Below are positions 7,260-18,113 of a stretch of 44,024 nucleotides of DNA, piece after piece; position 1 is the stretch's first letter, and each line of letters begins with the position of its first letter. The stretch is from Oscillospiraceae bacterium (GTDB lineage Bacteria; Bacillota_I; Bacilli_A; RFN20; CAG-826). Location: the NCBI GenBank assembly GCA_963647095.1, contig CAVIYC010000001.1, forward strand, positions 1 to 44,024, in the 5' to 3' direction. The notes beneath the pieces are model-generated. The model saw only the letters and a list, made by a program, of their open reading frames with translations. It searched no databases and was not told the DNA's origin. A program made the translations under genes and the position numbers.

Positions 7260-7879
7260 GTTTGTTCGTTACTTTCGAAGGCGGGGAAGGCTCTGGGAAG
7301 TCCACCGCGATCAAATCGTTGGTCGAAAAGCTCCAAAACGAAGGATATGACATCCTTTTGACCAGGGAACCTGGCGGAACGCCGATTTCCGAGCAAATAA
7401 GAGAAGTCATATTGAACAAAGAAAACACCGAAATGGATCCGGTCACCGAGGCTTTTTTGTATGCGGCCTCGAGACGCCAGCACGTCGTTGAGAAAGTCAA
7501 GCCGGCCCTAAAAGAGGGGAAAATCGTTTTATGCGACCGTTTCTTGGATTCTTCCTTGGCTTACCAAGGAGGGGCCAGAGGCTTGGGTTTCGACATGATT
7601 CTGGAAATCAACAAGCACGCGATTGACGGATTGTTCCCGGACGTGACCGTCTTTTTCGATTTGAAGCCGGAAATAGGCTTGGCTCGCATAAGCGCCAACT
7701 CCGGAAGGGAAGTCAACAGATTGGACGTCGAGAAAATGGAATTCCACGAGAAAGTGAGAAACGCTTTCTTGACGTTGGCCAAGATGTATCCGAACCGTTA
7801 TGTGATAATCGACGCCTCAAAGACTCCCAAAGAGGTGCTGGAAGAGACTTACAACGCCATAAAAGCGAAATTGAGATAA
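7256..7879 (+). CDS. tmk: Thymidylate kinase
   Basis: 207 aa with P-loop FEGGEGSGKST, and the TREPGGT and DRF motifs. ATGA overlap with recR. Confidence 0.95.
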   Translation: MSLFVTFEGGEGSGKSTAIKSLVEKLQNEGYDILLTREPGGTPISEQIREVILNKENTEMDPVTEAFLYAASRRQHVVEKVKPALKEGKIVLCDRFLDSSLAYQGGARGLGFDMILEINKHAIDGLFPDVTVFFDLKPEIGLARISANSGREVNRLDVEKMEFHEKVRNAFLTLAKMYPNRYVIIDASKTPKEVLEETYNAIKAKLR

Positions 7880-8865: not shown

Positions 8866-9701
8866 ACGAACACAATTACTTTGTGGCCATACATTTCGAA
8901 GGCGCCGCCAAATCTTATTATTTCTCGACCGACATACCCGATTTGAAACCCGGGGATTTCGTCATCGTCGATTCTTTGGGCGGATATGAGATGGCCATCG
9001 TCACCTCCTCTCCCCAAATGATGAACGATTATCATTCTAAGCTCAGCTTAAAGCCGGTTATCAGACGCCCTTCCGCCTCGGACTTGTCGGTTTACCAATA
9101 TAACATCGAACAAGCCAAGACCGCGTTGGAAGTGGCCAGGAAAGAAGCCTCCAGATTGGGCTTGGAAATGAATTTTTTGGACGCCAAATATTCCTTGGAC
9201 GGATCTAAGATAACCATTACCTACACCGCGGACGGCAGGGTGGATTTCAGAGAGTTGCTAAAATCTCTGGCCCCTCAGCTCCATTGCCGCATCGAATTAA
9301 GGCAAATCGCCCCCAGAGACAAAGCCAAATTGATAGGCGGAATCGGAACCTGCGGTTTGCCTTTATGCTGCAATACCTTCCTAAACGAATTCGACGGAAT
9401 AGCCATCTCAAGAGCCAAGAACCAGATGCTTACCTTGAACATCCCCAAGCTTTCCGGGCCGTGCGGGAAGCTCATTTGCTGCTTGCTTTACGAAGACGAT
9501 ATGTACACCGAAGCCAAGAAACATTTCCCAACCATCGGAACGCACGTCATTTATGACGGCCACGATTACACCGTCACGGGATTGAACGTTTTAAGCAACA
9601 CGGTGAAATTGGAAAACCCTTTGACAATCAAAAACATCCCGTTGGATGAATTCAACGGTTTGGAAAAGGTGGAGAAAAATGAGTCTGAAAAGGGAGAATA
9701 A
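8862..9701 (+). CDS. ricT: PSP1-domain regulatory iron-sulfur protein RicT/YaaT
   Basis: 279 aa with TADGRVDFRELLKSLAPQLHCRIELRQI and Cys clusters GTCGLPLCC and GPCGKLICC, as in B. subtilis YaaT. Conserved position after holB. Confidence 0.85.
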   Translation: MNEHNYFVAIHFEGAAKSYYFSTDIPDLKPGDFVIVDSLGGYEMAIVTSSPQMMNDYHSKLSLKPVIRRPSASDLSVYQYNIEQAKTALEVARKEASRLGLEMNFLDAKYSLDGSKITITYTADGRVDFRELLKSLAPQLHCRIELRQIAPRDKAKLIGGIGTCGLPLCCNTFLNEFDGIAISRAKNQMLTLNIPKLSGPCGKLICCLLYEDDMYTEAKKHFPTIGTHVIYDGHDYTVTGLNVLSNTVKLENPLTIKNIPLDEFNGLEKVEKNESEKGE

Positions 9702-10536
9702 CTACGAGGGGGATTCGCCTCTTCTTTATTTGGTCGCCACCCCGATCGGCAACAAAGAAGAATTCACGCCCAGAGCCATAAACGTCTTGAAAGAGATGGA
9801 TTACATCGCTTGCGAGGACACCAGAAACTCTGGCTTGCTGTTTTCCAAATTCGACATCAAAAAGCACCTTATTTCTTGTCGGGAATTCAACGAAAACGAA
9901 AAAGCGGAGGAAATAATATCCTTGCTTAAAGAAGGCAAGAAAGTCGCTTATGTTTCCGACGCCGGGTATCCGGGGATTTCGGATCCCGGGCAAAAGCTGG
10001 TCTCCAAAGCTTTGGAAGCCGACATCAAAGTCGCCGTCATAAACGGCCCGAACGCCGGATTGTGCGCCCTATTGGCCTCTGGGTTGGACACCACGCACTT
10101 TACCTTCGAAGGCTTTTTGCCATCCAAGGATTCTTTGGCCAAAAAACGTTTGGAAGAGCTAAAGAATTGGCCTCATACCTTGATTTTCTACGAAGCCCCC
10201 CATCGCATAGAAAGAACCTTATCGATGATGAAGGACGCTTTTGGGGGAGATAGGAAAGCCTGCTTGGCCAGAGAATTGACCAAATTGCACGAAGAATACA
10301 TCCGAGGGACTTTTTCCGAATTGCTGAACGAAGATCCCGAAACCCTCAGGGGAGAAATGGTCATCTGCGTCGAAGGGAAAGAAATGACAAACGAAATCTC
10401 CGACGACGACATCGAAGAAAATCTCAATAAAGCCCTAAAGAGCCTTTCTTCCAAAGAGGCCGTAAAGAAAGTCTCAGCCGATTTGAAAGTCGGAAAAAAC
10501 AAGGTCTACAACGTTTATTTAGAGCGTTTCAAATAA
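9679..10536 (+). CDS. rsmI: 16S rRNA (cytidine1402-2'-O)-methyltransferase RsmI
   Basis: Tetrapyrrole-methylase fold with LYLVATPIGN, CEDTR, SDAGYPGISDPG and FYEAPHR. ATG 9679 is preceded by GGTGGAG. The ORF-track start at 9646 is probably an extension. Confidence 0.9.
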   Translation: MSLKRENNYEGDSPLLYLVATPIGNKEEFTPRAINVLKEMDYIACEDTRNSGLLFSKFDIKKHLISCREFNENEKAEEIISLLKEGKKVAYVSDAGYPGISDPGQKLVSKALEADIKVAVINGPNAGLCALLASGLDTTHFTFEGFLPSKDSLAKKRLEELKNWPHTLIFYEAPHRIERTLSMMKDAFGGDRKACLARELTKLHEEYIRGTFSELLNEDPETLRGEMVICVEGKEMTNEISDDDIEENLNKALKSLSSKEAVKKVSADLKVGKNKVYNVYLERFK

Positions 10537-13500
10537 TTCTTTTCTGCGTTTCTTGGCCCTAACGGCAAAGACGGTGATTTCATACGTGGCGAAAATAACG
10601 ACTGCCGCGCCGCTTAACGCCGCGCCCATCTTTAGATATGGGGTAACGTAGGTGAAAACATATTCCACTTCGCCTTCCGGCGCGAAGAACCCGACCAATC
10701 CGCCATCCATTTTGACGGTCTTCAATTCGGTCTCGATATATTCGCCGGATTCGCCTTTGGTTCTGGCCACCACTTTCCATCCGGCGTCATATCCCAAAGT
10801 CGTTACCACGGCTTTTTGCTTGCTGAAATTGGATTTGGCTTCGAAATGGTCGGAATTGATGTATTTGACGTCCGTCAGAAGATGGTCTTCGTCCGTAATG
10901 GAGGCGTATTTCGCATCAAAATCCTTTCTTTCCTGCATGAGCAAGAATGGGATGGGGGCTTCGCCTTCTTCCCCGTTTTTCTTGGAGAAGACTATTTGCC
11001 TGACCCTTCCTTCCGCGTATATGCCAAATAGGCCGCTGTAGTTGCCGGATATCTGGCTATTGACGTTGTCGAAGGAATGGAATTCGTAATTCAATATGGT
11101 GTTTTCTTTCTTTAAAGAACCATCCTCGTTGAAGGTGTCGCCAATCATATAAACCCTGGAAATATTGCTGTGGTTATAAGCAAAGAGGAAATAAGCCCCG
11201 TTTGGGTCTTCGTTCATATATGGATCGCCCGTCCCCAAAGACCAAACGAGTTTCCCGTCTTCGAGGTTATTTGCCCCATAATAGGTTCCTTTGAAGATTT
11301 GCCCAGAATAGGCGTTGGTGTACGAGCTGACGTAAGTGTTCTTGCTGGAATCCACCAAAAATGACGCGGGGTCTTCGTAATTGAAGCCATATCCCGGCAC
11401 GTTTTCGAATACCCTGGATTTCAATTGGCCGGACAAATCGGTGAATTTGACGTCGCTGAAACTGGGAGAGGAAAGTATTTCGATTCCCTCTGGAACGTCC
11501 ACGTCGTCTTTGATTATCGCCCCGTTGAGATAGGCCTCCTCATTCTTGGCTATTTCCTTAAAGCCGTTGGAGTAATAGGAATTATGGTAGAAGTCCGAAT
11601 AATTGAGGTGGTCGGTGTCCAAAGTCCCGTCTTCCAGGTATTTGTCCCAGGCGTTTTCCCTATAAACCCCGTCCACGGCTCTGCCGAGTTCGATGTGGTA
11701 TGGATTTTCGTATATTCTGAATTTGTTGTTCTTATAGACGCATTTGGAACCGAAAGGAACGTTGTATTTGAAATCGTCGTCGTCCCATAAATCGCCCATC
11801 CCGGTATCTTCGGAAACGATCGCGTAATATTTGATTCCCGTCAACAAATCGAAGGAAAAACGCTTGTTGTTGTAATAGCCGGCCCAACGGGAAGAAACGT
11901 TCTTTTGGCCATATGGCGTGCCGTTCGCGTATTCGTTTTCGATGATATGGGAATAATGGCTCAAATCGATGACTTCGTAGTTGAACAGGGAAGACCATGG
12001 GGTGGTCCCGTTATAACCCATCGCGTAATTCATGTTCTTTTGGGCGGGATAATCCGCATAAGCCCTATACAAAGTGTCCGTGTCGTATTCTTTGGTGACG
12101 TAGGCGAAGGCCTCGGTCAATTGGGTTCCGGTCGTATATTGGTAATTCTTGTTGTCGTAACCGCCGTTAAAGGATCTCCCATAGCTATATGAAGAGCCAT
12201 ATAAGAAAGATATGTTGCCGCATACGATGACTTCCGCGGCCACGAAAGCCGTGACCATGTTTTTGAAGAACTTTTTCTTGGAGAAGAAAATGATGAACGC
12301 GGACTCTACGACCACCAAACCCATTTGGTAGATCGAAAGCCACAAAGTCGAATATTTTTCTCCGCCCCTAAGTACGTAAGCCGGGATGTTGTAAACGGAT
12401 TGCCAATAGGTCATGAAGTTGCTGTTGGTGAAGGTTTTTCCATTTAAGACCCAGCGAACCATGAAGAAAGTCAGCAAAGTCGCGACCGCCACCAAGCCCG
12501 TAGCCAACGGCAACTGGTATTTGGGCGCTTCTTTACGATGGTCCATTCCCCTGCACGCTTGCCTGATAAGCAAGGGAATCAAGACGATGTACCATCTTCC
12601 GTAGCCATCCCCCGTAAAGGCGAAGCTGAAGAAATACGCAAAGATGGTAAACACGCAATAAGAACACAAAGCGAAGGAAATCAAATGCTCCCAATCCTTG
12701 GTTCTGACGTTGTTTATGAGCTCGAACATGAAGAAGATGATCATCGGAGTGTAGATGAACAAAGACGAAGTCCAAGCGTCATATCCGGTTGAGATCCCTC
12801 CGCCATAAAGCGGGAGCCACAAATAGTTGCAGGTGGGGAAGAAGAAAGACACCAAACCCATCATTTCCCTGCCGGGGTGATCGCCAACCATCTCAAACAA
12901 TCTGGCGAAAACGGTCTTGACGTCGAACGTTTTCAAAGCGTTCAGCAAGTCTTGGAGATATAGGTAACCGATGGAATGCCCCCTACCGGACAAGGCTGAT
13001 TGCCTAATGGAGGGAAGCAAGGACCACGAACATAGCATCAAACCCAGAGCAAAGCTTAAAACCCCCAAACCCAAAACGGCCCACGAATCTTTTCCTTTGC
13101 GGCTCTTGATGGTCCAAAAGAACCTCCATAAAGCGTATAAAACCCCCCAAATGCACATGACCACCAAAAAGAAGAAGGAGACGATTCCGAGCATGGCCAA
13201 AGACCAAGTCAAAGTCCCTATCTTTTTCTCTTTGATTACCTTTTCGATGCCCAAAAGGATGAGCGGAATGAATACGACCGCCGAAACGAAGGACGGGAAG
13301 CCGACGAAGAAGTTGACGAAACCGGAGAAGGCGTAGGCCAAAGCCCCCACCCTCGCGCTGGATTCCCTAACTCCCATGTATTTGAGGTAGGCTCTCATCG
13401 CAAATCCCGCGCAAGTCGCCTTCAAGACGGTGAATATGGCCGTCATCTGAGGGACCCAACCGCGAGGGAACAAGACGTTTAAAAACACAAATGGATCGAA

Positions 13501-13851
13501 TAATCCGTAATAAGACATCGAGCCGATGTTGTCCCCGCCCAAATATATGGCCGGGTCATACATCGTGAAATGCCCCGTTTTGAAAAACTCATGCCAAACG
13601 TCCCAATAGTGATAATAGAATTCGACGTATTGGCTCATATAATCCCAACCATAAAGCTGGGTGCCGTAGTTTCTGATGAGCGAATAGCCCATCCAGCAGA
13701 AACCGACGATGACCAAAAGCAGACCGAAATAGAACAAAGACGTCCAATCAAAAAGGTAAGGCATATGCTTCCTAAACCATTCGGAAGCCTTGTTTTTTGC
13801 CTTTTGCTTTCTAAGTTCGCCCAAAGACGTGGTCTGTTGGTCTTCCATCAT
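10519..13851 (-). CDS. YfhO-family-like polytopic membrane protein (putative glycopolymer glycosyltransferase), 1110 aa
   Basis: The N-terminal ~560 aa carry many TM helices. A ~500-aa Asn/Tyr/Asp-rich extracytoplasmic region follows, then a single C-terminal TM and an RAKKRRK tail. This matches YfhO topology. The start overlaps the stop of the PII-like gene. Confidence 0.65.
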   Translation of the reverse strand: MMEDQQTTSLGELRKQKAKNKASEWFRKHMPYLFDWTSLFYFGLLLVIVGFCWMGYSLIRNYGTQLYGWDYMSQYVEFYYHYWDVWHEFFKTGHFTMYDPAIYLGGDNIGSMSYYGLFDPFVFLNVLFPRGWVPQMTAIFTVLKATCAGFAMRAYLKYMGVRESSARVGALAYAFSGFVNFFVGFPSFVSAVVFIPLILLGIEKVIKEKKIGTLTWSLAMLGIVSFFFLVVMCIWGVLYALWRFFWTIKSRKGKDSWAVLGLGVLSFALGLMLCSWSLLPSIRQSALSGRGHSIGYLYLQDLLNALKTFDVKTVFARLFEMVGDHPGREMMGLVSFFFPTCNYLWLPLYGGGISTGYDAWTSSLFIYTPMIIFFMFELINNVRTKDWEHLISFALCSYCVFTIFAYFFSFAFTGDGYGRWYIVLIPLLIRQACRGMDHRKEAPKYQLPLATGLVAVATLLTFFMVRWVLNGKTFTNSNFMTYWQSVYNIPAYVLRGGEKYSTLWLSIYQMGLVVVESAFIIFFSKKKFFKNMVTAFVAAEVIVCGNISFLYGSSYSYGRSFNGGYDNKNYQYTTGTQLTEAFAYVTKEYDTDTLYRAYADYPAQKNMNYAMGYNGTTPWSSLFNYEVIDLSHYSHIIENEYANGTPYGQKNVSSRWAGYYNNKRFSFDLLTGIKYYAIVSEDTGMGDLWDDDDFKYNVPFGSKCVYKNNKFRIYENPYHIELGRAVDGVYRENAWDKYLEDGTLDTDHLNYSDFYHNSYYSNGFKEIAKNEEAYLNGAIIKDDVDVPEGIEILSSPSFSDVKFTDLSGQLKSRVFENVPGYGFNYEDPASFLVDSSKNTYVSSYTNAYSGQIFKGTYYGANNLEDGKLVWSLGTGDPYMNEDPNGAYFLFAYNHSNISRVYMIGDTFNEDGSLKKENTILNYEFHSFDNVNSQISGNYSGLFGIYAEGRVRQIVFSKKNGEEGEAPIPFLLMQERKDFDAKYASITDEDHLLTDVKYINSDHFEAKSNFSKQKAVVTTLGYDAGWKVVARTKGESGEYIETELKTVKMDGGLVGFFAPEGEVEYVFTYVTPYLKMGAALSGAAVVIFATYEITVFAVRAKKRRKELFETL

Positions 13852-14627
13852 TTGTTTCCTTGTTCTTCGATTTCTTTCTCTTCTTCGTCGCTGGGATTGC
13901 TGATTCCCACGACGTCAGTCAAAGGCAAGGAGAAGGCGATGCCTTGTCCTTTGGTGCCAAAGCCGACGGCGTTGTTGATGGCCACCAAGACATCGTCTCT
14001 GATCTCTTTCGGGACCAAAATCATCACCATTTTCTTCTCAGGGGTAATGACTATTCCGTAGAACTGCTCGATTTCCTTATTGCCGGTTCCGTGGCCGTTG
14101 ATGATGGTGCCGCCTCTGGCTCCGGCTTCCCTGGAAGCGGACACGACCAAATCGGTATATCCGTCGTTGACGATGGCGAATATCGCCTCATAACCATTGT
14201 TTTGTTCCATATTCACTTCCTCCGTGTTGGTTGTTCCTGCGTTATTGGCGTAGGTTAGATATTTGTAAGCGGATAGTCCCGCCATTTTGGTTAATGGAGC
14301 CATCCAGGCGATGCCAGAAGACAACTTGCTGGTTTTGAATCTCTCCTTAAGTTCCAATTTGAGATCGTTCCATTTGCTCAATTTCACAAAGGAGCAGACG
14401 ATGTCTTTCTTTTCGTCTCCGACGCCAAGGACGTTATAGAAGTCGTTGGTGTAGGTGCCTTTGCCGCTGATGATAAAGGACGTCGCGCATTCGTTTTTGT
14501 TATATATCCCAACGATCGAACTGGCCAATCCATGATTGACGACCGCCATGGTGAAGGCCAATGGCATAGCGCCTTTCATGATTTTGGTTTCAGGTTCCGC
14601 GACCGCGTTTTTCTTTTTGCTGCTCAT
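13848..14627 (-). CDS. Tandem PII (GlnB)-like signal-transduction protein, 259 aa
   Basis: The C-terminal half reads YEAIFAIVNDG...GARGGTIINGHGTG...MVMILVPKE...GTKGQGIAFSLPLTDVVGI, matching the PII beta-alpha-beta pattern and the GDGKIFV..V..V.RI box. The N-terminal half (LAFTMAVVNHG...IISGKGT...GIAWMAPL) is a degenerate copy. GGAGG Shine-Dalgarno is present, and ATGA overlaps occur on both sides. Confidence 0.65.
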   Translation of the reverse strand: MSSKKKNAVAEPETKIMKGAMPLAFTMAVVNHGLASSIVGIYNKNECATSFIISGKGTYTNDFYNVLGVGDEKKDIVCSFVKLSKWNDLKLELKERFKTSKLSSGIAWMAPLTKMAGLSAYKYLTYANNAGTTNTEEVNMEQNNGYEAIFAIVNDGYTDLVVSASREAGARGGTIINGHGTGNKEIEQFYGIVITPEKKMVMILVPKEIRDDVLVAINNAVGFGTKGQGIAFSLPLTDVVGISNPSDEEEKEIEEQGNK

Positions 14628-16246
14628 TCCGTCACCTCCGTGAAATCGATCAAGACATCATCATTCTCAGCAATGAAGTTCTTTCTGGCTTTGCTATAGA
14701 TAACCATTCTCTTGATGCCGGCATACAAGCCCATCAATTGAACGACGATCAAAGGCATCAAGGCGATCATCGCCACCGAGCCAAAGGCTGAAGCGTATAC
14801 GTAATCCGCGCCTTTCTCGGCGAAAGTGAATCCCGTGCAGAAAGGCATGACGAAAGTGGAGGCCATCGGACCAGAGGCGACGCCGCCGGAGTCGAAAGCC
14901 ATGGCGAAATACATCTTCGGGACAATGAAGGAGAGTCCCAAAGCGATGAAATATCCGGGAATCAGATAATAAAGGACGCTGAATCCATAATGCGCGCGGA
15001 CAATGGCCAAAGCCACGCCGCCGCCGACCGCCAAGGCCAAAACGGCCAAAACGGCTTTGGATTTCACGGTTCCTTCGGAAACCTTTTCAACCTGGCTTAC
15101 CAACGAATGGACGGCCGGTTCGGCCAAGGCGCCGAACATGCCGAACAAGAATCCGACCAAAACCGCATAAGGGAACAAGTCTCTTTCGGGGTTGCCGAAG
15201 CATTTGCCCAATTCCTGGGCCACCGGCATGAAGCCTATTTCGACGAAAGTCATAAAAACGGCCAAACCGATATAGGCGTAAATCAAACCAATAAGGATCT
15301 TGAACAATTCCCTCTTCGGCAAACGGACGAAGACGAAATTATAAAACAGGAAGAACGCCGTAATCGGCAATATGGCGATGGCCGCATTCTTCAATTGGGA
15401 GACTATACCGTGTCCCAGCATGTTCAAATAGAACGGCCAAACCGTTTCCCAAGCGTTGTAATTGAGAGCGTCGGCTTCCGATATGGATGGAGACCAAGTC
15501 ATTGAATCGACGTCTACGAACAAGCCCATGATCATGACGGCGATGATCGGCCCGACGGAGGCTAAGGCCGTAAGACCGAAGCCATCTTCCCCGTTGCGGT
15601 CGCCGGTGGATTTGGAAGACGCCAAACCGACGCCGAAGGCCATGATGAACGGAACGGTGACCGGCCCGGTAGTGACGCCACCGGAGTCAAAAGCCACCGG
15701 CAAGAATTTCGGGTTAACGATTCCCGCCAAAGCGAAAACCATTCCATAGAAAGCCAAGAACAAAACATTGAGCCTTCCGCCGCGCAACGTGCGGATAACG
15801 CCGATGACAACGAAGATTCCGACGCCCAACGCGATGCTTATGATAAGCACCCATTCGTTCATGCCGATTTGGGAGGCCATGGCTTTTAAATCCGGTTCGG
15901 CGATGGTTACCAAAACGCCGATGATGAAAGTCATGGCGATTACCAACCACATCTTTTTCTTATGGAACAAAGTCTGTCCGACGACTTCGCCGATTCTGCT
16001 CATGGAATTGGTGACGCCGGCGTTAAACAGGGCCAAGCCGACGATAAGGCCCGCCGCAGAGATAACGAAAGTGACCAATAACTGAGGCGAGAATTCATCC
16101 CTTGGCAATACGCCGGTTAGATATATGACAACGATGACCGCGACGATCGGCAATACGGCCAACGAGCTTTCCAAGAATCCTTTGGCTATCTGCTTAATGA
16201 CGGCCAACCATTCTCTTCTTGGCTTTGGATTTGCGCTTTTTGTCAT
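14624..16246 (-). CDS. Fused double DUF1538-family integral membrane protein, 540 aa
   Basis: Two homologous halves each carry AEP(D/A) and (V/M)AFDSGGV(T/A)(T/S)GP motifs with ~6 TM segments each. A strong AAGGAGG Shine-Dalgarno lies 5 nt upstream of ATG 16246. Confidence 0.7.
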   Translation of the reverse strand: MTKSANPKPRREWLAVIKQIAKGFLESSLAVLPIVAVIVVIYLTGVLPRDEFSPQLLVTFVISAAGLIVGLALFNAGVTNSMSRIGEVVGQTLFHKKKMWLVIAMTFIIGVLVTIAEPDLKAMASQIGMNEWVLIISIALGVGIFVVIGVIRTLRGGRLNVLFLAFYGMVFALAGIVNPKFLPVAFDSGGVTTGPVTVPFIMAFGVGLASSKSTGDRNGEDGFGLTALASVGPIIAVMIMGLFVDVDSMTWSPSISEADALNYNAWETVWPFYLNMLGHGIVSQLKNAAIAILPITAFFLFYNFVFVRLPKRELFKILIGLIYAYIGLAVFMTFVEIGFMPVAQELGKCFGNPERDLFPYAVLVGFLFGMFGALAEPAVHSLVSQVEKVSEGTVKSKAVLAVLALAVGGGVALAIVRAHYGFSVLYYLIPGYFIALGLSFIVPKMYFAMAFDSGGVASGPMASTFVMPFCTGFTFAEKGADYVYASAFGSVAMIALMPLIVVQLMGLYAGIKRMVIYSKARKNFIAENDDVLIDFTEVTE

Positions 16247-17222
16247 AGGTCCTCCTTTCTGGAACTTTGGGTTTGGCGATGTATTCTGGTTTGGGATTCC
16301 TCACCTTCCAGAACAGCGATTTCATCGAGGTGGGCATCTCGGTTTTGAAATCGTAGGTTTTCCCGTTCAAGGGATTCGTCAACGTCAGTTGATAAGCGTG
16401 TAGCCCCAATCTCTTTATCGGATTCGCGGGCTCTCCGTATTTGTCGTCCCCGATGACATAATGCCCTCGGTAACCGAATTGAACCCTTATCTGGTTCTTT
16501 CTTCCGGTTTCTATGTCGACGTCGAGAAGGGTGAGCCCGTTCTTTTCTTCCATCTTTTTGAAGTTGGTGACGCAGAGCTTGCCTTCTTTTTTGTTTTTGG
16601 TGACATAAACGAGATGGAGGCTGTTTTCGGCTAGGTAATCTTCGTATCTTCCGCTTTCTGGTAGGCCCTCTCCCTCGACAATCGCGTAATATCCGCGTTT
16701 GGTGACTATGTCGTTCCAATTGTTTTGGAGGGCTTCTCGAACTTCGAAGTTCTTGGCGAATATCAATACGCCGGAAGTGTCTTCGTCCAAACGATGAACG
16801 ACGAATATGCGGGCGTTTTTGTCTTTGGCAGTCAGATAATCGGACACGAAGCGATAGGCGGTGTGTCCTTTTTCTCTGTCCGAAGCGATAGAGAGCAATC
16901 CCGATGGCTTATTGATGGCGATTATGTCATCGTCCTCATAGATAATGTCCAATTGATGGGCGTTACGTTTCTTGATTCGGTTATGGGAGAGCAATACTTC
17001 GTCTTCGGGGTATAGCTTGAAATTGAATAAGGTGACCGGTGCTCCTCCGACGGAAACCTGCTGGCTGGAAATGACGTGCCTGGCGATCGTATTGGAAAGA
17101 TTGGCTTTTTCCATCAAAAAAGGAAGCAACGTAGTTTCTTCCTTAACCAAAAAGACCCTCACCTTGTTTGGGTCGATGAGGCCTTTTTGAGTACGATGTT
17201 TCTTTGCGTCGTTCCTATTCAT
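16194..17222 (-). CDS. RluA-family pseudouridine synthase with N-terminal S4-like domain and basic C-terminal tail
   Basis: 342 aa with the HRLDEDTSGVLIF catalytic motif, and the KNQIRVQ and YGLHAYQL-type blocks. The Lys/Arg-rich tail is encoded in the 53-nt overlap with the DUF1538 gene. Confidence 0.85.
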   Translation of the reverse strand: MNRNDAKKHRTQKGLIDPNKVRVFLVKEETTLLPFLMEKANLSNTIARHVISSQQVSVGGAPVTLFNFKLYPEDEVLLSHNRIKKRNAHQLDIIYEDDDIIAINKPSGLLSIASDREKGHTAYRFVSDYLTAKDKNARIFVVHRLDEDTSGVLIFAKNFEVREALQNNWNDIVTKRGYYAIVEGEGLPESGRYEDYLAENSLHLVYVTKNKKEGKLCVTNFKKMEEKNGLTLLDVDIETGRKNQIRVQFGYRGHYVIGDDKYGEPANPIKRLGLHAYQLTLTNPLNGKTYDFKTEMPTSMKSLFWKVRNPKPEYIAKPKVPERRTYDKKRKSKAKKRMVGRH

Positions 17223-17261: not shown

Positions 17262-18113
17262 TTAATCGGATAAAAGATATTTTTTGAGTTCGTCTAATCT
17301 CTTTTTGGCGGTCTCAACGCCCAAATCATAAGCTTTTTTCAACACTTCCGTGTCTTGGGAAGTCGGGAATATTTCTAATGAATATGGGGGATAAAACACG
17401 AAAACGTTGCCTTTGTCTTCCTCTTCTTCGAGGATGCGGAGGTGTTCGTGATAGGTGATGTGGCTGTATTGGTGGCCGTTGATGAAGTTTGGATAATCCT
17501 TGAATCTCTTTTCGACCATCGGTTCGTTGGCTTCGTGCAAATCTTTGAACCTGAAGCCTCTTTCGCGGTTAGAAACCACGACGATTTTCTTTCCTTCCGC
17601 CAACGGGCGCAAGAAAGGTATGCGTTCGACGTATCCGCCATCCAAAGTCGGGATGTCTCCGACCATTTTCGGTTTCTTGGTGAAGGCGGTCAAAGAACAG
17701 CTCCCTTCGCAACCGTCATAGAAATTTGGATCTTCCTTGGCGATATAGATTGGGGTGCAGGTATTCAAATTGGTGGCTACGGCGTAGAATTCGGTCTCGC
17801 TTTCGGCGATGGCTTTCTTATCCAAATCTTTGTTTTTCTTTTCGTCGAAATAATGTCTGAAATCAATCAAAGACCCACCTTTCAAGAAATCCAAAGGGGC
17901 TATGACATCTTTCATTTTGGTGTCCAAAAACAATCGGGAAGCCGCTCCTTTTTTCTTTTGGACGTAATTTAAGCCAACCCAGGTGCCGGCCGAACAGCCA
18001 TAAGCTTCGGTTGCGAACAATCCTTCTTCGATCAATACGTCGACGACTCCGCAGGCGAATATGGCGCGCTGGCCTCCGCCTTGAATCGACAATACCCATT
18101 CTTTGTTGCTCAT
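17262..18113 (-). CDS. Patatin-like phospholipase
   Basis: 283 aa with oxyanion motif GGGQRAIFACG, nucleophile elbow GCSAGT and a catalytic Asp in LDGGY. ATGA overlap with the HAD gene. Confidence 0.8.
   Translation of the reverse strand: MSNKEWVLSIQGGGQRAIFACGVVDVLIEEGLFATEAYGCSAGTWVGLNYVQKKKGAASRLFLDTKMKDVIAPLDFLKGGSLIDFRHYFDEKKNKDLDKKAIAESETEFYAVATNLNTCTPIYIAKEDPNFYDGCEGSCSLTAFTKKPKMVGDIPTLDGGYVERIPFLRPLAEGKKIVVVSNRERGFRFKDLHEANEPMVEKRFKDYPNFINGHQYSHITYHEHLRILEEEEDKGNVFVFYPPYSLEIFPTSQDTEVLKKAYDLGVETAKKRLDELKKYLLSD

Follow-up and report, generated by a model that had tools for sequence, protein, structure and literature searches.

We analyzed a 44,024-nucleotide (nt) stretch of DNA from an Oscillospiraceae bacterium (GenBank assembly GCA_963647095.1, contig CAVIYC010000001.1, positions 1 to 44,024), here referred to in its entirety as the window, with a focus on a membrane protein of the DUF1538 family and the PII-like protein encoded directly downstream of it. 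The list of open reading frames (ORFs) places three genes in succession on the minus strand, which encode a double-DUF1538 membrane protein of 540 amino acids (aa), a tandem PII-like protein of 259 aa, and a YfhO-family membrane protein of 1110 aa (Table 1). An initial annotation of this DNA had described the three genes as joined by 4-nt start/stop overlaps. Both junctions are present, each reading ATGA, and the tight coupling that the annotation proposed is supported. A Shine-Dalgarno sequence, GGAGGTGA, is located 7 nt 5' of the PII start at the 14627 junction. The DUF1538 gene itself is preceded by a strong ribosome-binding site, AGGAGG, 6 nt upstream of its ATG at 16246. Searches with the Pfam models that the annotation had named, PF07556 (DUF1538), PF00543 (PII), and PF09586 (YfhO), gave matches above the gathering score for all three proteins. 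The ATGA junctions, domain matches, internal duplications, and motifs are not a chance pattern. Our best reading is that the functional unit comprises two genes, DUF1538 and PII, rather than three.

Table 1. Features of the DUF1538-PII locus and adjoining genes, in window coordinates
Feature	Position	Strand	Evidence
Fused A-B double-DUF1538 membrane protein, 540 aa	14624..16246	-	Pfam DUF1538 x2
A-type half of DUF1538 protein	15461-16246	-	Groups with A-type split subunits
B-type half of DUF1538 protein	14627-15460	-	Groups with B-type split subunits
AEPD motif, A-half, residues 116-119, at helix break	15890..15901	-	Alignment, AF2/DSSP
FDSGGVTTGP motif, A-half, residues 186-195, across helix break	15662..15691	-	Alignment, AF2/DSSP
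AEPA motif, B-half, residues 375-378	15113..15124	-	Alignment, AF2/DSSP
FDSGGVASGP motif, B-half, residues 451-460	14867..14896	-	Alignment, AF2/DSSP
ATGA overlap, DUF1538 stop and PII start	14624..14627	-	Junction sequence
Tandem PII-like protein, 259 aa	13848..14627	-	Pfam P-II, AF2, Foldseek
N-type PII-like domain, residues 20-125, diverged paralog	14253..14570	-	N-half HMM; monophyletic N-halves
C-type PII-like domain, residues 143-246	13890..14201	-	Pfam P-II, 35.6 bits vs cutoff 25
T-loop region of C-type domain, GHGTGNKEIEQFYGIVITPEK, ends in clade-specific P-E-K	14034..14096	-	Homolog alignment
ATGA overlap, PII stop and YfhO start	13848..13851	-	Junction sequence
YfhO-family membrane protein, 1110 aa	10519..13851	-	Pfam YfhO, E = 3e-50
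RluA-family pseudouridine synthase	16194..17222	-	PseudoU_synth_2, E = 2e-29 (Pfam); NCBIfam also
Patatin-like phospholipase, first gene of conserved co-directional block	17262..18113	-	ORF call; Pfam Patatin on orthologues

Related loci were gathered via the PII protein, by tblastn of the DUF1538 protein against annotated plasmids, by a genome scan, and by direct look-up of fused DUF1538 proteins. The genome scan used an alignment of B-type DUF1538 domains (one of two domain types, A and B, described below) and yielded 49 loci, and the direct look-ups took fused DUF1538 proteins without regard to PII. Every ORF of the gathered loci was then scored with custom hidden Markov models (HMMs). Among the 57 loci chosen through DUF1538 alone, one or more PII-like genes lie directly downstream in all 55 that are informative, and the remaining two (L014 and L040), which have no PII gene, stop at a contig edge. 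At the junctions inspected, the DUF1538 and PII genes overlap by up to 20 nt or are separated by up to 14 nt. The central idea of the initial annotation, a transporter paired with a PII-type regulator, is supported by this adjacency in every informative locus. Among the modules sampled, YfhO is absent next to these genes outside one Bacilli lineage. We consider it likely that DUF1538 and PII constitute a transporter and its PII regulator.

The loci selected through DUF1538 span about ten phyla, archaea included. Taxa carrying the module comprise Alpha- and Gammaproteobacteria, Acidobacteriota, Planctomycetota, Chloroflexota, Bacteroidota, Spirochaetota, Bacillota, and three archaeal lineages. 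Bacterial record titles include Vicinamibacterales, Solibacteraceae, Pirellulales, Dehalococcoidales, Prolixibacteraceae, Spirochaetaceae, and several Clostridia and Bacilli, and archaeal titles include Methanomassiliicoccales, Methanosarcinaceae, and Methanolobus; the carriers include tractable hosts, namely Xanthobacter autotrophicus DSM 431, Methylocystis, Paraclostridium bifermentans, and Methanolobus. Database annotation from the PGAP pipeline already labels such pairs “DUF1538 domain-containing protein” and “P-II family nitrogen regulator,” and we found no published work on the pairing in the literature searched for DUF1538, UmpAB, and PII-like proteins. The modules come in two forms. 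In split modules (n = 43), separate A and B genes are accompanied by one PII protein of ~108 to 132 aa, and in fused modules (n = 19), the A and B domains form a single protein accompanied by a tandem PII of 197 to 284 aa (17 modules) or by two separate PII genes (L062 and L063).

The 540-aa protein matches PF07556 over two stretches (E = 2.6e-111; 370.4 bits against a cutoff of 22.6), and its N- and C-terminal halves are 25% identical to one another (E = 2e-16), in agreement with the two homologous halves that had been annotated. The AEP(D/A) and FDSGGV motifs noted previously occur once per half, as AEPD and FDSGGVTTGP and as AEPA and FDSGGVASGP, respectively. The N-terminal half is of the A type (AEPD, GGVTTG, SVGPI) and the C-terminal half of the B type (EPAV, GGVA[ST]GPMA). 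Because these halves group with the A-type and B-type split subunits, respectively, the A/B paralogy is older than the fusion. The AEPD of the A-half is unchanged in 56 fused homologs, and the E-P of the AEP motif is invariant in both A and B types from Proteobacteria and in the window protein. The initial annotation had treated the fusion as unusual; in fact, all of the best 120 of at least 8000 homolog candidates are fused (484 to 574 aa, from Bacilli and Erysipelotrichaceae-type genomes), and Bacillota typically carry the fused form. Homolog names such as Bacilli bacterium and Erysipelotrichaceae bacterium would place the source of the window in Bacillota, probably in the class Bacilli.

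In the confident AlphaFold2 (AF2) model of the DUF1538 protein (pLDDT 86.9, pTM 0.87), the invariant AEP(D/A) and FDSGGV..GP motifs fall at helix breaks, with DSSP assigning the break at AEPD to the interval between helices at residues 99 to 115 and 118 to 127. E117 is an invariant carboxylate that we infer to lie within the membrane. Seven membrane passes per half were read from the AF2 model, which also supplied the loop boundaries for counts of lysine and arginine (K+R). By this measure, A-type domains are N-in in 51 of 51 cases, and the bias of B-type domains is the opposite in 13/13 fused and 26/39 split proteins, with 4 split proteins reversed. The opposite bias, together with seven passes per domain, therefore points to an antiparallel 7+7 inverted-repeat unit, and it implies opposite membrane insertion of the split A and B subunits. 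Neither sequence searches nor Foldseek returned a solved relative of the DUF1538 fold; hits to ClC, PPase, and EAAT structures were discarded as Foldseek noise (E of 1e-2 or worse, TM score of ≤0.19). The protein ends in a conserved cytoplasmic tail (residues 516 to 540, window positions 14627 to 14701; consensus RARKRF.EEND.QIIHF), in which R521, D529, I533, and F535 each reach at least 90% conservation across 56 homologs. The PII-like partner may dock on this tail.

The two halves of the 259-aa protein are also homologous (27% identity, E = 2e-6), and its AF2 model (pLDDT 73.7) contains two beta-alpha-beta-beta-alpha-beta units by DSSP, so the earlier description of a tandem duplication with a PII fold in both halves stands. 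Foldseek matched the model to GlnK/GlnB structures with a probability of 1.0 and a target-normalised TM score of up to 0.80. Full-length matches to sulfur oxygenase reductase, PduT, and chlorite dismutase (TM scores of ~0.2 to 0.3) were rejected as generic tandem ferredoxin-like matches. Pfam P-II is detected at residues 149 to 242 (E = 7.3e-8; 33.1 bits, cutoff 25), and members of the clade score 17 to 38 bits against that cutoff, placing them at the edge of the family; no NCBIfam model was found for the PII clade of DUF1538 modules. The clade carries a signature of its own (AGA.GGT, GRG.G, EPEKE, and G.G[IL]AF). The GHGTG and GQGIAFSLPLTDVVGI motifs of the PII-like protein are present as annotated, and the T-loop is among its most conserved segments, with G180, G182, G191, P196, E197, and K198 invariant and T181, N183, K184, E187, F189, I194, and T195 at least 90% conserved. 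This loop is ~5 residues shorter than that of GlnB.

The initial annotation had called one half of the PII-like protein canonical, a label that the C-half does not bear out: it matches Pfam P-II only marginally and has no equivalents of K58, K90, R101, and R103. We checked the canonical MgATP/2-oxoglutarate contacts Q39, K58, K90, R101, and R103 in Escherichia coli GlnB numbering. In an HMM alignment to Arabidopsis PII (2o66), the equivalents of K90, R101, and R103 are I, G, and A, and in an alignment to a manually entered E. coli GlnB sequence, the replacements across the whole clade are K58 to E, K90 to L/I, R101 to G, and R103 to V/S. Judged from these alignments, the clade lacks canonical ATP/2-oxoglutarate contact residues. 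The uridylylation-site motif is also not present in the PII clade of DUF1538 modules.

The two domains of the tandem protein have different histories. Single PIIs of split modules score higher with the C-half HMM in 43/43 cases (median of 86.6 bits versus 31.7 with the N-half HMM), and the C-half is thus read as the orthologue of the single PII and the N-half as a diverged duplicate. The N-type domain has ECATSF in place of GARGGT and no Pfam match. N-halves form one clade in a neighbor-joining tree (11/11), and the duplication was probably a single event. In L062 (6581-7358) and L063 (6577-7367), two overlapping PII genes replace the tandem protein, the first of the N type (139 and 135 aa, no Pfam match) and the second a C-type P-II (122 and 128 aa). 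The stand-alone N-type genes score 118 to 122 bits with the N-half HMM, and their existence as separate genes indicates that the diverged N-domain has been retained as a paralog in its own right. We set aside the co-occurrence of fused DUF1538 with tandem PII as evidence of co-evolution, given that the N-halves are one clade and that L062 and L063 break the rule.

A statement in the initial annotation that DUF1538 has no experimentally assigned substrate is superseded by work on UmpAB of Halomonas zhaodongensis, a DUF1538 pair of 254 and 271 aa with seven predicted transmembrane segments (TMS) each, which a 2017 study demonstrated to be a heterodimer with pH-dependent Na+(Li+,K+)/H+ antiport activity (PMC5484666), and by the NCBIfam models for UmpA and UmpB. 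In E. coli, a clone that stopped immediately after umpB sufficed for UmpAB activity (PMC5484666). The antiporter therefore worked without a PII protein, which fits PII as a regulatory rather than an essential partner. The window protein belongs to the same Pfam family and likewise brings together two homologous 7-TMS units, as an A-B fusion where UmpAB has separate subunits from translationally coupled genes (PMC5484666); the UmpAB work neither cloned nor discussed a PII partner. The full-length window protein scores 161.6 bits with NF041627 (UmpA) and 118.8 bits with NF041628 (UmpB), against equivalog cutoffs of 490 and 500, its halves score 51 to 100 bits, and the halves together with the split subunits tested span 51 to 131 bits. 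By these scores, the window protein is a family-level relative of UmpAB and not an orthologue.

Genomic context adds clues to function. Neighbors enriched around split modules include P2-type cation ATPases (13 ORFs), universal stress proteins (Usp; 8), CPA Na+/H+ exchangers (3), and AI-2E/UPF0118 (3), as well as CBS, BON, and Mrp, counts that are not independent, as many of the loci come from related Hyphomicrobiales. In Proteobacteria, a P2-type ATPase gene and Usp genes are frequent neighbors of split modules, with ORFs of ~840 to 990 aa adjoining the modules of L016, L018, L020, L023, L024, L028, L031, L032, L034, L035, L037, L038, L041, and L046. Several of these proteobacterial modules are on plasmids or near transposases (L008 and L009). 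This setting suggests that the proteobacterial split modules belong to a mobile cation and stress-homeostasis island. Elsewhere, a machine-learning study counts DUF1538 among the ion-transport genes predictive of optimal growth pH (PMC13255231), and UmpAB homologs figure as salinity-adaptation markers in papers on cable bacteria.

Few signal integrators in biology are as widespread as PII proteins. In GlnK-AmtB, a canonical PII plugs an ammonium channel, and in SbtB-SbtA, a PII-like protein regulates a Na+/bicarbonate symporter. To our knowledge, AmtB and SbtA are the only well-understood transporter partners of PII proteins. The DUF1538 module resembles GlnK-AmtB in that a PII-fold gene with a conserved T-loop sits beside, and would be co-transcribed with, a membrane transporter gene; it differs in that the AmtB fold is unrelated to DUF1538 and in that the DUF1538-linked PII has a shorter T-loop and none of the K58, K90, R101, and R103 equivalents or the uridylylation motif. 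With SbtB-SbtA, it shares a non-canonical PII-like protein alongside what would be a secondary transporter of inverted-repeat construction (Na+ coupled in the case of SbtA), although PDB searches detected no relationship of DUF1538 to SbtA in sequence or in fold. The pairing of N-type and C-type domains, fused or as two genes, recalls NifI1/NifI2, two PII paralogs encoded together and presumed to form a heteromer; the proposed target here is a membrane transporter and not nitrogenase, and the N-type domain is beyond Pfam P-II detection.

Taking these lines of evidence together, we propose that the window encodes a secondary transporter of the DUF1538/UmpAB family, whose homologous 7-helix A and B halves would form one antiparallel 7+7 unit, with the invariant carboxylates of the AEP and FDSGG motifs placed at helix breaks, presumably within the membrane. 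Exchange of a monovalent cation for protons would be its most likely transport activity. By analogy with GlnK-AmtB and SbtB-SbtA, the PII-like protein would act as a cytoplasmic regulator, its conserved T-loop docking on the transporter from the cytoplasmic side, and would gate transport in response to a small-molecule signal, probably one with a binding mode other than the canonical MgATP/2-oxoglutarate mode. The regulator of Bacillota comprises two paralogous domains, N-type and C-type, mostly fused and sometimes separate, which implies a heteromeric PII assembly. Overall, we regard a PII-gated cation/proton transporter as the best explanation and as rather probable. For the substrate taken on its own, a monovalent cation exchanged for H+, our confidence falls a little short of an even chance. 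Still more tentatively, the module may be a third ancient PII-transporter system, shared by Bacteria and Archaea, that couples cation/proton exchange, by way of a fold without a solved structure (an antiparallel 7+7 unit with paired carboxylates at helix breaks), to a PII clade with a non-canonical signal and, in Bacillota, to an N/C heteromer.

Several considerations weigh against this proposal. The genome scan rested on two peptide patterns and so samples part of the DUF1538 family only; the correlation of fused DUF1538 with tandem PII is not independent evidence, because the PII duplication was probably a single event; and DUF1538 activity has been assayed by one laboratory only, in the KNabc complementation system. 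Transfer of the substrate from UmpAB is weak because the window protein scores far below the equivalog cutoffs, and no cation-related gene recurs next to the fused modules of Bacillota. The last two points also favor a PII-gated DUF1538 transporter for some other substrate (an anion such as bicarbonate, a divalent metal, or a small metabolite), with the UmpAB activity being a side activity or specific to a subfamily. Consistent with such a substrate, the best-known transporter partners of PII-like proteins handle ammonium and bicarbonate, and no solved relative of the DUF1538 fold constrains the chemistry. We nonetheless consider a different substrate unlikely, given the cation ATPases, CPA exchangers, and Usp in split-module neighborhoods, the association of DUF1538 with growth pH, invariant carboxylates at helix breaks of the kind typical of cation or proton sites, and the fact that the sole experimental data for the family describe Na+(Li+,K+)/H+ antiport (PMC5484666). 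The transport activity of UmpAB alone (PMC5484666) also argues against a DUF1538 protein that serves mainly as a sensor or anchor, sequestering the PII-like protein from a true target elsewhere. For canonical PII, there is a precedent in the sequestration of GlnK by AmtB to control other enzymes, and the two distinct PII domains in Bacillota could serve two partners; yet no third conserved partner was found across ~60 loci, and we judge a sensor or anchor role improbable.

The coupling of the PII stop to the YfhO start raises the further possibility that DUF1538, PII, and YfhO, with RluA upstream, are one system linking ion transport or signaling to envelope glycosylation. The identifications themselves are sound, both for the YfhO protein and for the upstream pseudouridine synthase (Table 1). 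The YfhO match reaches 171.9 bits against a cutoff of 28.5, with the best stretch at residues 45 to 380 (model positions 5 to 325 of 835). At 1110 aa, the protein exceeds the 835-position model in length, only its N-terminal third is covered by the best match, and weak NCBIfam matches link it to the Streptococcus glycosyltransferases PgfM1 and PgfM2. Beyond the 4-nt overlap in the window, the order DUF1538-PII-YfhO recurs in 9 distinct loci. Indeed, the window and its relatives share the order patatin-RluA-DUF1538-PII-YfhO, convergent with rsmI-PSP1-holB-tmk-recR (L001, L002, L006, L056, L057, and L060 to L063, of which L001, L006, and L061 to L063 have RluA arranged as in the window). An interim view that YfhO was restricted to very close relatives was dropped, as the block extends down to 47% DUF1538 identity. 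However, rsmI, PSP1, holB, tmk, and recR are equally conserved, and because these surrounding housekeeping genes are conserved to the same degree, we attribute the arrangement to synteny within the lineage, accompanied by operon compaction, rather than to a functional triad. Furthermore, YfhO is absent from the fused modules L003, L004, L007, L010, L054, and L059 and from all 43 split modules, and a 170-nt gap precedes it in L061. We therefore consider a glycosylation-linked system unlikely. The YfhO/RluA arrangement, which the initial annotation had singled out as special, belongs to the synteny block of one Bacilli lineage and is absent from the other modules sampled; YfhO is a lineage-specific neighbor outside the core module. 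In L003, one of the fused modules that lack YfhO, two long ORFs of 918 and 522 aa lie downstream of PII in the same direction (9015-13342), and neither matches a Pfam model.

If a PII-gated cation/proton transporter is correct, PII control would extend to ion and pH homeostasis, and a poorly studied antiporter family would gain a regulator. The module would also point to a PII ligand of a new kind, and a structure of a DUF1538-PII complex would be new, as the DUF1538 fold is without a solved relative. The pairing is far more general than the initial annotation knew; the fusion, the tandem PII, and the YfhO coupling are ordinary for the lineage.

Some record labels conflict with gene content. 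L057, on the same contig as L002 (CAVBUY010000001.1) and titled “Alistipes shahii,” has the Bacillota-type order recR-tmk-holB-PSP1-rsmI and a module 87% identical to that of the window, and the bin label is probably wrong. Modules in records titled “Bifidobacteriaceae” (L027) and “Paceibacterota” (L050) closely resemble those of Proteobacteria and Dehalococcoidales and may be mis-binned.

Within the 44-kb window (1 to 44024), no Rfam family scored above its gathering threshold and no tRNA gene was detected, and the empty Rfam scan thus offers no riboswitch clue. A scan for promoters and terminators gave sites no more numerous than in shuffled sequence. YfhO, on the minus strand, converges with rsmI, on the plus strand; the two genes overlap by 18 nt at 10519-10536, and no convincing intrinsic terminator was found between them. 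The slot between tmk and holB, usually occupied by darA, is empty as previously noted: the tmk stop and holB start share a single base at 7879 (TAATG), and there is therefore no gene between them. On the other side of the module, Pfam Patatin was matched on the genes of L001, L006, L060, L062, and L063 that are orthologous to the patatin-like gene of the window. The 3' end of RluA reaches 53 nt into the DUF1538 ORF (16194-16246), counted from the ATG at 16246. A later DUF1538 start (527 aa) is annotated in L002, a relative 87% identical by PII, and the RluA/DUF1538 overlap is 4 nt to 52 nt in the more distant relatives L006 and L061 to L063.

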